Virus genome (UHGV): UHGV-0264998
Origin: a virus
DNA: 10,155 nt
Direction: 5' to 3' (one strand)
Numbering within the stretch: position 1 is the stretch's first letter; every line of letters starts with the position of its first letter. Shown in pieces: positions 6,001 to 9,000 of this stretch. The position numbers were made by a program.

Positions 6001-9000
6001 CATGTTCGGTAACAGGCATATGATTAACTCCAGAGAATCAGGGAGAGCCTTTCGACTCAGAGGTATTTAGCGATGTACTGCCAGTTGCAGTTTTCAGGGC
6101 GGTAGAAGTAAGCAAGCTCATCAGGCGCAACATCCAGCGCCAGCGATGACCACAGCAGAAAAGCGCGGGCAGGTTCCCCATCGCGCCCGGCTCGTCCAAT
6201 CATCTGAACAAGATCAGGCAAATCATCGGGGACGTATGTCACGACAACGTTACGGATATCAGGAACATCAGCACCCAGCCCGAAGGCTTTAGTAGCAATA
6301 AGAATCGCGCCCGGCGTAGAGGCAAACCACTCAGCGTTTGCGTGGCGTTCCTCGTTGCTCAGGTGCATCGTCTTCGAGTGATATGACCGCGCCCGGTCGC
6401 CCAAGAGTTTCAGGTACGCCCGCAACGTTTTAAGGTCATTGACGAGAATAAGCGTCTTCTCTTCTTTCGGCAGAGCCTCGACCAGACCAATAGCCGCTCG
6501 GAAACGTTCGCGGCACTGTCTGACTGGCGTCAACTGGATATTCTCGCGAGCAACATCAGCGCGGAATGTTACGTAATCGCCACGGCAGCCAAGCGACTCC
6601 ATTAAACTGCGCTCATTTTCGCGTAGCAGCGTAGCCGTAAACACGCAGCGTTGAGCCGAAGGAAAGGCATTCTGTAGTGTGTGCTGCATTGCGTCGTAAG
6701 CTGGGCGGAAATCCCAGTCTTTGACCGTGTGTGCCTCATCGATAATAAAACGATCAACGCCATAAGCCATCAGCGCCGCGAGAACCTGACTCGACGGAAC
6801 CAGATGTTCAGGCGAAACGACTGCAACCCGGAACGCCCCGGCAGCCAGCCCCGCCAGTTGTTGCGCATTGCGGTGCCTCGGCAGCTTGTCACCAAATGCC
6901 ACAGCGTGAACGCCAGCCTCCCGCAACTGGCGGAGAATCTGACGCTTAAGGGTATTAGTAGGAACAACGATAACAGACAGGCCAACGCCAGCGCGGGATT
7001 CATAAATCAATGGGTAAGTGAAGGCAGCGCTTTTGCCATACCCAGTAGGCAGAACGGCAAGCACATCACTGCCACGGGAAAAGATCGCATCAGCAACAGA
7101 CAATTGCCCCGGCCTCCACTCCAGCCCATCAGGTGGCAGCAGGCTAACGCGTGCGTTTCGGTCACAGCGAGCCAGCGGGCGGAACTCATACGGCGTAGTA
7201 TTCAGTGGCGGCACAGACGGCGAAGCAGCCAAGCCGTTCGGGTCACAATGATGATTTGTACTATTAAATCTATCTTCGGTAGGCTTCGACTCTCCACACC
7301 AAAATTGACGAAACTCCCCTGAGTCTCCGTAGCGTTTGAAATCTGCGTTACGCATCGCTTCCAGTTTACTCATGCCCCTGTTAATGCGGCGCATGGTCTT
7401 CTCATCGCAAATCAGGAACTCGCGGCAGGCTTTGAGAAAAGCATTCTGTCCGGTTGTTGATTCCGGCACGGCGTGCTCTCGCGGTTTCAACGCGGCATCG
7501 TCTACGCGAACATCGGGAAAATCTGGCGGCAGCGGGTCAACATAACGAGCAGGCTTTTTATTTAGCCATTGCTCAATCTCAGCGCGTCGGCAGTGAATCG
7601 CGTCACCGGGCTGGATGACTTGCCGTAACCCCTTATCAGAACGCTGTTTTTGCTTTTTAGGCTGCACACCGTGTATCGTTCTCCACTCCCGCAAGGTCAT
7701 CGCGGAGCCATCTGCATTGTAATAAAACTCTTCGGTCTTTGTGTTGTATGCCGCCTTAACGGGTTTACGCTTTACGGGGCATATCTTGGAACGCCGAATA
7801 ACAATCCCGTCAGCGATCATTTGCTGTACATCTGCATTTGCGGTATTGAGCGGGCCAGCATTGGCAGCCTGCGCAAGCAAACGGCGTAGGTTCGTTGGCA
7901 TGGTGAAATCTCCAAAAATTAAGGTGAGTTAAGAATGGGGCGCAGGATGGAAGCGCCGAGAGTGTGGCAGCCTGTCCTTCTTAGTAGATGCTTTCATTGC
8001 ATTGGCGTCGATGATCCGTCTCCCCACAGTAGACACCTTTATTTGAACGATATTTAATCAGATCCATTGCAAGCCTTGCTCTATCTGACTTTACGGGTAA
8101 TTAGGTGATAACTTTTGGTAGGTTTGGCGGAACAATGGAATGGATGCGGTTAGTAGCGGCATTGTGTGTACCGTATCCCAATATAGTCACTTTCATCGGG
8201 TGGAATCCGGCAGGATGCCAGACGGCAGAACGTGAACGTAGTAGGGCAGGTAACAGACAATAGACCGTGACGGCGTACTATAGCTGGCAGTAGTACAGCA
8301 GGCAGTAAGACCAATGACCAACGGCTAAGACCTGAAAGGAAACGAACAAGAAAGATGATTGAATGCTACAGAAATGAATGAAGATGTTATGAAGAATACC
8401 GTACCGATATCAGGATAAGATTGAATAAAGTAAGAATACCGATACTGAGTACCGTCCCACTACACCTCCCCGCCGCGTTGCCTGCCACGGCAAGCACGGT
8501 TGCGTAGAGTGGCCGAGCATCAGCAGCGGGCAAAGACCGGGAATGAGCCAAAGGCGATGGAGCGGGCTGGAGCACAGCGAGAAGCGCAGCCAGTGGAGAG
8601 CGTGAAGCGATAACACTGATTAGGAGATGGGGATGTAGGGGAAGAACCCTTTTTTGTACATGTATTTAAAATGCAACTTTAAAGAGAGCGAAGCGCTCTT
8701 ACACTGCTTGGGATGAGAGAGTGAAGGGAGAGAAACCTTTATTGTACATGTACTAAAGATACATCTTTAAAACAGCTCAACCAAGTGATGCCACTCCGTC
8801 TCCTGTCTGGCTTTGAGACTGGACAACACAGCCTTTGATCCCTTCCCCTGCCCCATCCCTCGAATTGTTCAGTGATAAATCACATTCACAATCTGATCTC
8901 GATGTTCATCGTCTGGCACGGCTAAAGCCCCGCCATCTCTTCACATCGAGAGCCGCGAGTAAAACGAAAACACATTACAAATCATAGCATTACAACATGA

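Follow-up and report, generated by a model that had tools for sequence, protein, structure and literature searches.

A duplicated type-specific cis module in a satellite-like enterobacterial island and its putative recognition by the N-terminal domain of a RecQ-family helicase

Introduction

The replication origins of the Staphylococcus aureus pathogenicity islands (SaPIs) and other phage-inducible chromosomal islands (PICIs) are reportedly matched to Rep helicase-initiators of their own. In the enterobacterial satellite P4, the cis replication region (crr) consists of two ~120-bp direct repeats with octamers bound by the alpha protein. Here, we compare these systems with a locus in the virus genome UHGV-0264998, where two 88-nt units lie head to tail in a non-coding stretch between the genes for a small serine recombinase and a RecQ-family helicase. 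The analyzed stretch of 10,155 nucleotides (henceforth, the window) is a part of an enterobacterial genomic island, all genes of which are on the minus strand. As judged from comparison of the related sequences, the unit is a type-specific cis module, duplicated in the window, of a mosaic ~1.2-kb control region in a satellite-like island. Our favored, though still tentative, reading is that this module is the cognate, putatively origin-like, cis site of the helicase N-terminal domain.

Like the SaPI and PICI origins, which co-vary with the initiator by island type, the locus combines a satellite island, a helicase with a separate specificity domain and a type-specific AT-rich cis site beside the helicase gene. 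It differs from them in that the helicase is of the superfamily 2 (SF2)/RecQ-like kind and its N-terminal domain is an orphan, the site is found ~700-1000 bp upstream of the gene rather than immediately 3′ of it, one short dyad is usually present instead of two iteron sets, and the role in replication is putative. The nearest precedent is the P4 crr/ori, which is likewise a tandem cis module of ~100 bp in an enterobacterial satellite, with a motif for the element's own helicase-type protein (a putative assignment here). However, the alpha protein of P4 is a primase/SF3 helicase that binds DNA through a C-terminal domain, the two systems have no sequence similarity, and the duplication is the norm in P4 and rare here. 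P4 also features a comparable RNA, the CI RNA immunity leader (seqA/seqB/seqC), which shares with our region the form of a long untranslated stretch upstream of a replication operon with repeated or complementary segments and type-specific modules; unlike that leader, our region has no Rfam or sequence match and displays covariation in only one flanking hairpin. A palindromic initiator site by an AT-rich tract and a helicase with an N-terminal origin-binding domain (again putative here) are found in the SV40 large T antigen and papillomavirus E1 systems, but those proteins are SF3 hexamers from another superfamily without homology to the island helicase, making this an analogy only. Finally, the res and hix/gix sites of the Tn3/gamma-delta resolvases and the Hin/Gin invertases are comparable in their dyad-symmetric DNA and neighboring resolvase/invertase-family gene; in contrast to these, our site is too short, single in most relatives, devoid of covariation with the recombinase and located 3′ of the gene. 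By analogy to the SaPI, P4 and T antigen/E1 systems, the arrangement is tentatively read as a matched initiator and cis-site module of a known kind, here duplicated, with the initiator being putative.

Structure of the duplicated unit

The repeat and its parts are as follows:

8596-8683: repeat unit 1 (from the repeat search), the type-specific module of type T1, comprising GAGAGCGTGAAGCG, a G-rich stretch and an AT-rich stretch with TGTACATGTA
8684-8771: repeat unit 2, a diverged paralog of unit 1 (72% identical), seen only in the window, L010/L011 and Escherichia coli LT883142 (L053)
8650-8683: AT-rich segment of unit 1 (82% AT), with the dyad TACATGTA at 8657-8664 and the invariant core CCTTTnnTGTACATGnA starting at 8647
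8738-8771: AT-rich segment of unit 2 (79% AT), with the dyad GTACATGTAC at 8744-8753
8685-8699: perfect hairpin AGAGCG-aag-CGCTCT with a 6-bp stem, at the 5′ end of unit 2

The initial annotation had described ~65-bp direct repeats with a spacer between them. The repetition itself is real: over all offsets, 63/88 positions match in the best 88-nt window, compared with 40.7 ± 1.5 (maximum 46) for 300 shuffled versions of the non-coding region. The units, however, are 88 nt long (88 nt from start to start) and directly abut. Tandem Repeats Finder did not report the repeat in the window because the identity between the units is too low.

Each unit ends in a ~80% AT stretch bearing TGTACATG. The longer word TTGTACATGTA, which had been described as a palindrome, is found exactly at both predicted positions (8654-8664 and 8742-8752), against 0.07 matches expected; it is not itself palindromic, the true dyads being the shorter TACATGTA and GTACATGTAC listed above. 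A search for further copies of TTGTACATGTA found no third site in the 10-kb window, and TGTACATG is restricted to this locus even in whole relatives of ~14.7 kb. The palindromes had also been placed on the same face of the DNA; 88 bp amount to 8.38 turns at 10.5 bp/turn, an offset of ~137 degrees, and therefore the two dyads are not on one face.

The perfect hairpin was correctly identified, but it does not sit exactly between the repeats as had been proposed: it constitutes the first 15 nt of unit 2 and lies 12 nt to the left of the midpoint between the palindromes. It is the third of three copies of an AGCGnGAAGCG motif (8576, 8599 and 8685), is homologous to 8597-8611 of unit 1, where there is no perfect hairpin, and is missing in two of the four haplotypes of the homologous position. 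We rejected it as an intrinsic terminator: it is not recovered in the terminator scan and is followed by TACACTG (plus strand) or CTTTAAAG (minus strand), with no direct U tract. A likeness to the lambda nut boxA/boxB (CGCTCTTA and GGG-GAAGAA-CCC) is limited to unit 2 and to the strand without downstream genes, and we take it as a chance match.

Relatives of the locus were collected from one genome per species (8 loci), IMG/VR (1 locus), 53-58 complete E. coli genomes, metagenomes scanned for a conserved 21-mer (37 loci, including 5 chance matches) and contigs encoding more distant homologs of the helicase. Their comparative alignment, which the initial annotation had called for, shows TGTACATG alone to be invariant across the units of the relatives, with TGTACATGCA as a frequent variant; the pairing of the sites is not conserved. 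Across 17 distinct units, both paralogs included, no variation is seen in GAGnGnGAAGC at the start or in CCTTTnnTGTACATGnA at the border of the ~80% AT stretch.

A mosaic non-coding control region

The repeat occupies the middle of a 1.2-kb non-coding stretch (7902-9101) without a conserved open reading frame (ORF), the counterpart of which is the sole large non-coding region of the complete 14.7-kb element. The relatives differ from each other by 1-nt indels, and ORF calls in the region are not conserved, in keeping with its non-coding nature. Public gene calls include a 170-aa ORF at 4053-4565 of L052 (equivalent to ~8230-8740 of the window, minus strand); its frame is broken in most relatives, and it is therefore a spurious call. 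The region is ordered as a left block, a middle segment, a right block and a tail up to the recombinase stop codon, with the following parts beside the units:

7965-8050: helicase-proximal iteron-like repeats CCTTCTTAGTAGAtgCTTTCATT and CCCACAGTAGAcaCCTTTATTT, the second of which has AGAMMCCTTTWTT in common with both units
8445-8595: left conserved block, kept in all relatives, ~85 nt of which are detectable even where the helicases are 43-46% identical
8772-8839: variable spacer between the module and the right block, with two spacer types among the relatives
8840-9000: right conserved block, kept in all relatives, with a C-rich tract (8841-8860), a small hairpin (8864-8892) and a covarying hairpin (8897-8905/8943-8951)

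It is the middle segment that sets the relatives apart. In type T1 it is the 88-nt unit with TGTACATG, in type T2 a long AT-rich segment, and in type T3 a segment bearing GTGTACACATGTAC; the distant relatives retain the same architecture with palindromes of their own (TTACCCTTAAGGGTAA in one and AACCCCTATAGG twice in the other) along with iteron arrays. The types split directly after GAAGCGCAGC (8595) and rejoin at TGATCCCTTCCCC (8836), and thus the unit together with the spacer is exactly the type-specific part of the region.

Several other features of the region deserve mention. The shared word AGAMMCCTTTWTT is found at the iteron at 8031 and in both units (8643 and 8731). Directly upstream of the helicase operon, iterons of the form YCTCCTTAGTAK / CTTAGTAGAnnCYTTYATT number two in the window, ~4 in the E. 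coli island L001 and ~10 in the distant relative L051 (reverse complement of 3083-4856, offsets ~400-800). The C-rich tract at 8841-8860 is present with 3-4 C runs in all module types and is partly complementary to the G-rich part of the unit (8623-8645); its minus strand, GGGATGGGGCAGGGGAAGGG, is a canonical G-quadruplex motif near the gene of a RecQ-family helicase. The stretch at 8190-8445 is purine-rich on the plus strand (A+G ~68%, GC skew to +0.26, AT skew to +0.36), with recurring GGCAG and TACCG words; on the minus strand, it would form a C/U-rich, G-poor leader resembling a Rho-utilization site. It is kept only in a subset of the T1 relatives, the others having unrelated sequence in its place.

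A search for a shared cos, pac or ori site in 50,697 phage records recovered no match at E ≤ 1e-5 and only chance-level matches at E ≤ 10, and a corresponding search of plasmid DNA recovered nothing. With no match among these phage records, a helper-phage cos/pac site is not supported as an explanation for the module.

The module type follows the N-terminal domain of the helicase

The protein concerned and its relevant part are:

6057-7901, minus strand: RecQ-family (DpdF-like) DEAD/DEAH helicase of 614 aa
7542-7901, minus strand: codons 1-120 of the helicase, encoding an orphan N-terminal domain with a sequence type that corresponds to that of the module

We tabulated the identity of every protein of the window against the module type over all loci. 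The helicase tracks the module through its first ~120 residues only: within T1, identity over residues 1-120 is 91-98%, even in proteins that are 73-82% identical outside this part, and between T1 and T2/T3 it is 64-72%, with T2 and T3 forming groups of their own. No comparable relationship is displayed by the other candidates. The recombinases found with T1 modules are 97, 82, 34 or 27% identical to that of the window, and the same alleles are found with T2 and T3. For the helix-turn-helix (HTH)-like protein p187, identity is 74-97% in T1, 80-81% in T2 and 70% in T3, the HTH-like p137 is often absent and does not track the module, and neither the small proteins nor the HTH of the recombinase follow the module type.

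For 40 loci, the helicase N-terminus (N), the module (M) and the helicase-proximal non-coding DNA (P) were then clustered separately. The N/M pairs (N0-M0 in 25 loci, N1/N2-M1 in 11, plus N3-T3, N4-M2 and N5-M3) include zero mismatches. The iteron region type P is shuffled independently of both module and helicase type: P0 is found with N0M0 and N1M1, and P1 with N0M0, N1M1, N2M1 and N3M4. For example, the T1 locus L007 and the T2 locus L006 have 750 bp of helicase-proximal DNA that are 88% identical, while their left block and module differ. The ~700 bp between the module and the N-terminal domain, as well as the rest of the helicase, have thus recombined among the types, and since N and M stay paired despite the exchange of the DNA between them, the match points to co-adaptation rather than mere linkage, on the evidence of a correlation only. 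Antisense pairing of the module with the 5′ coding region of the helicase was rejected as a cause of the match, there being no complementarity of at least 13 nt.

Accommodating this match, we tentatively posit that the module confers specificity on the replication origin of the island or, more loosely, is the cognate cis site of the helicase. The N-terminal domain would bind the CCTTTnnTGTACATG core as double-stranded DNA, and the adjoining ~80% AT stretch would be the site of duplex opening and helicase loading, in an island that presumably must replicate or be packaged after induction. The second unit of the window would then supply an additional site for binding and melting, as origins with repeated modules do. 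As the one-copy elements are the norm, the duplication is not needed for this function. The helicase core is of the RecQ family, a DNA helicase, with far weaker scores against RNA-helicase models. Two properties expected of an origin are observed: the AT-rich stretches (82 and 79% AT, against 52% for the whole non-coding region) adjoin the putative initiator site, and the type of the cis site is matched to that of helicase residues 1-120 in the 40 loci, as a correlation only. On the count of repeated sites, there is one dyad in most relatives and two in the window, AGAMMCCTTTWTT occurs a third time at 8031, and the iteron arrays are not type-linked.

Several observations weigh against an origin. 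Most relatives have one short dyad, against several initiator sites in classical origins; no DnaA box or known origin signature was seen by eye; and we know of no SF2/RecQ-like helicases that act as replication initiators. The N-terminal domain itself offers little guidance: it has no Pfam family, its AlphaFold model is poor (mean predicted local distance difference test score, pLDDT, of 55), Foldseek recovered no structural neighbor, and an exhaustive HMMER search of 1.8 billion representatives found it confined to this helicase family, two long matches being low-complexity artifacts. Moreover, the N/M loci are not phylogenetically independent, and N and M lie within ~1 kb of each other, so that residual linkage is possible. 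Finally, the covarying hairpin that flanks the module is a sign of single-strand function in a part of the region and fits an RNA equally well or better (see below).

The annotation of the helicase also merits comment. The PADLOC model PDLC02858 ('DpdF') matches residues 112-614 (6057-7566) over the full length of the model with E 1e-274, beginning at residue 112, where the type-specific N-terminal domain ends. The NCBIfam DpdF equivalog scores 129 bits against a cutoff of 550 bits, and there are no other dpd genes in the window. The PDLC02858 sub-model seems to have been derived from the island helicase rather than from a true Dpd-system protein.

One-copy and two-copy alleles

Among 32 distinct core sequences, 22 have unit 1 as their sole unit, nine have a different module at the same place, and two units are limited to the window and the IMG/VR contig. 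The two-copy form is also present in one of 53 E. coli genomes (LT883142, L053), which brings the total to 3 of ~45 distinct loci. The second units of L053 and the window share ~85% identity, and the spacer after the L053 copy is that of the one-copy relatives; hence, the two-copy allele is old and no assembly artifact. Conversely, the one-copy allele equals the two-copy allele minus exactly one unit (L007 against L053, which have the same B-type spacer). These comparisons indicate that the two-copy form is a real, old and rare allele, that is, a minor allelic variant.

The prevalence of single units constrains all explanations that need two sites, which therefore cannot describe the conserved function. 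Accordingly, the initial annotation had observed something real but parsed it wrongly, and the readings that depend on the pair (an operator pair, a crossover-site pair or the two arms of an RNA structure) are unsupported. The last of these is a trivial outcome of having two copies of a self-complementary word and is inapplicable to the one-copy majority. The broader suggestion of a binding site fared better: a protein-binding role is plausible, and the option of an initiator site best fits the covariation with the helicase N-terminus.

The rarity of the second copy could alternatively mean that this tandem duplicate is selectively neutral and without a function in its own right, irrespective of the role of the single module. 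The exact one-unit difference between the alleles and the microhomology CTTTAAA(G/A) on the flanks of the units are as expected of such an event. However, unit 2 has lasted until it reached 72% identity to unit 1 and ~85% between two lineages, with the CCTTTnnTGTACATG core and the GAGnGnGAAGC start intact in an otherwise 28% diverged paralog; the persistence of these motifs suggests purifying selection on them. We accordingly give neutrality only a small chance.

A covarying hairpin and a possible structured RNA

The right block contains, ~125 nt rightward of the repeat, a nested hairpin with outer arms at 8897-8905/8943-8951 and inner stems at 8914-8917/8932-8935 and 8920-8922/8927-8929. In 33 sequences, seven of the nine outer pairs show compensatory changes, and in the right-block structure eight pairs are changed on both sides, against 1.3 ± 0.8 in shuffles (reached by 0/500); slid controls collapse. 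A part of the region therefore works as a single strand, either RNA or single-stranded DNA. This raises the possibility, which we consider unlikely although it is the main rival to the favored reading, that the core (~8435-8975) is a structured leader or non-coding RNA, with the 88-nt unit as its type-specific module, of which the window carries two. Such an RNA would most likely be read from the minus strand, beginning near an extended −10-like TGCTATGAT (8982-8990, reverse complement), crossing right block, module and left block in the direction of the helicase operon and stopping at a weak hairpin (8454-8440) with U-rich sequence. Its module could, for instance, determine immunity or attenuation in the manner of the P4 CI/seqA-seqC leader or serve to tether the helicase. 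The TATGAT hexamer of this putative promoter (8982-8990, minus strand) is seen in nearly all relatives.

The non-coding nature of the region suits such an RNA, as do its fold relative to shuffles (z = −3.4 on the minus strand and −2.1 on the plus strand), the location of all island genes on the minus strand with no sigma-70-like promoter between recombinase and helicase, and the start of the conserved block at a minus-strand hairpin followed by a U-rich stretch (8454-8440). In addition, the G-rich (8623-8645) and C-rich (8841-8861) arms can pair, with extra G·U pairs on the minus strand only. Against this, the G-rich/C-rich pairing is lost in T2 modules, the strand signs are mixed (two C-A against two U-G exceptions), and the promoter and terminator are weak consensus matches. 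There is also no covariation within the unit or the left block, the whole 570-nt core having a single covarying helix; RNAalifold, run on the 33-sequence alignment and on T1 alone, yields few supported pairs outside the right-block hairpins. The region matches no Rfam family (Rfam 15: none at gathering thresholds, chance-level matches at E ≤ 10), and a search of it for tRNA and tmRNA found none. The match of the module to the N-terminal domain of a RecQ-family, that is, DNA, helicase is not obviously explained by an RNA.

A variant that would combine both lines is that the ~450-540-nt core is an undescribed satellite RNA whose exchangeable 88-nt module is recognized by the helicase N-terminal domain, forming an RNA-helicase specificity pair. 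We judge this to be improbable on the present comparisons. If true, such an RNA might recruit, guide or gate the helicase or be an RNA-based immunity determinant, with the window as its two-module version.

Operators and recombination sites

The recombinase that adjoins the region is:

9102-9737, minus strand: small serine recombinase with a Resolvase domain and HTH_7, the allele of which is shuffled independently of the module

The TGTACATG dyad has several properties of an operator: the core is short, dyad-symmetric, invariant, embedded in an AT-rich stretch and unique in the element, and each lineage has its own palindrome at this place, as in immunity regions. A weak promoter-like match, TTGTAC-N18-TTTAAA, is further found on the plus strand in both units. 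On this basis, the dyad could bind a regulator from the element, a helper phage or the host, with a promoter in the AT-rich stretch, and the window would have two tandem promoter-operator modules. Yet, no sigma-70 promoter is detected on either strand of 7800-9900 (2.3 expected by chance), the TTTAAA hexamer lacks a conserved final T, and no element-encoded HTH protein tracks the module, the helicase N-terminus being the sole tracking partner. An operator pair, as envisaged in the initial annotation, is further at odds with the single unit of most relatives and with a spacing that is not an integral number of turns; the pair is neither conserved nor in helical phase. An operator role thus appears quite unlikely.

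The adjacent resolvase/invertase-family gene, the dyad symmetry and the two copies in direct orientation had likewise invited a reading of the palindromes as binding or crossover sites (res-, hix- or att-like) of that recombinase, with the copies as partners. The sites of small serine recombinases are ~26-30 bp long, with two ~12-bp inverted half-sites around a 2-bp crossover. The dyads of 8 bp (unit 1) and 10 bp (unit 2) are too small for this, and the region lies 3′ of the recombinase gene at a distance of ~350-450 bp. With most elements having one copy and the recombinase allele being uncoupled from the module (T1, T2 and T3 each occurring with the same set of alleles described above), there is neither a conserved partner nor a matched enzyme; moreover, recombination between direct repeats 88 bp apart would merely delete one unit. 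We therefore regard this role as extremely improbable.

Two other candidates were rejected. An inverton acting via the G-rich/C-rich inverted repeat (8623-8645/8841-8861) is contradicted by the absence of any inverted relative, arms unlike hix/gix, the lack of the left arm in T2 and the uncoupled recombinase. A diversity-generating retroelement with template and variable repeats is at odds with the lack of a reverse transcriptase and with mismatches that are not specific to adenine. We accordingly return to the cognate site of the helicase N-terminal domain as the reading that we tentatively favor for the module.

The island and its exchangeable genes

A complete copy of the island is a 14.7-kb contig (L052, 14,774 bp) that runs from the integrase to a cargo restriction-modification system, and many stand-alone contigs of ~14.5-15 kb are present in public read assemblies. 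The homologous island of E. coli is inserted next to tRNA-Leu (leuX); the island is found in ~1% of complete E. coli genomes and, as a one-copy element, in enteropathogenic E. coli (EPEC) E2348/69. Across the whole window and L052, L001, L053 and L054, the genes encode an integrase, endonuclease VII, an HNH endonuclease, capsid-like and HTH_23-like proteins, the RecQ-like helicase and the resolvase, along with several small proteins; no portal or large terminase was found in this set. The capsid-like protein of the window is:

1719-2759, minus strand: match to a phage major head protein (phrog_267, E 2e-70)

A weak T7-type small-terminase-like protein is encoded at 5379-5585, and a 9-bp tandem repeat, TATTGCCAT (~4 copies, 64% matches, 3957-3994), lies within a 228-aa ORF (3466-4152). 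To our knowledge, this gene set fits none of the P4-like, PICI, capsid-forming PICI (cfPICI) and PICI-like element (PLE) satellites, and searches of the literature returned no description of the island family or its non-coding region. By its gene content, the element looks like an uncharacterized phage-satellite-like integrative island of ~15 kb.

The recombinase allele (the 97, 82, 34 and 27% classes; 9102-9737) is swapped along with the adjacent cargo (9738-10155) among otherwise similar islands (L001-L060), the cargo being, for example, Eco29kI restriction-modification genes (L052), DUF3800 (L001) or Rap1a (L060). Conservation of the non-coding tail extends to ~40 nt before the recombinase stop codon. 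The pattern looks like a hotspot for the swapping of the recombinase together with its cargo.

Implications

With its covarying hairpin and modular architecture, the conserved region merits an experimental look. If the module is indeed the cognate site of the helicase, the pair would be a testable origin-initiator system whose protein partner, a RecQ-like (SF2) helicase equipped with an orphan DNA-binding domain, is unusual for an initiator. The 88-bp unit would then be an address label by which, in this widespread island family, the helicase of each type recognizes its own island, and this would explain how related islands keep separate identities despite the free exchange of recombinases and cargo genes.

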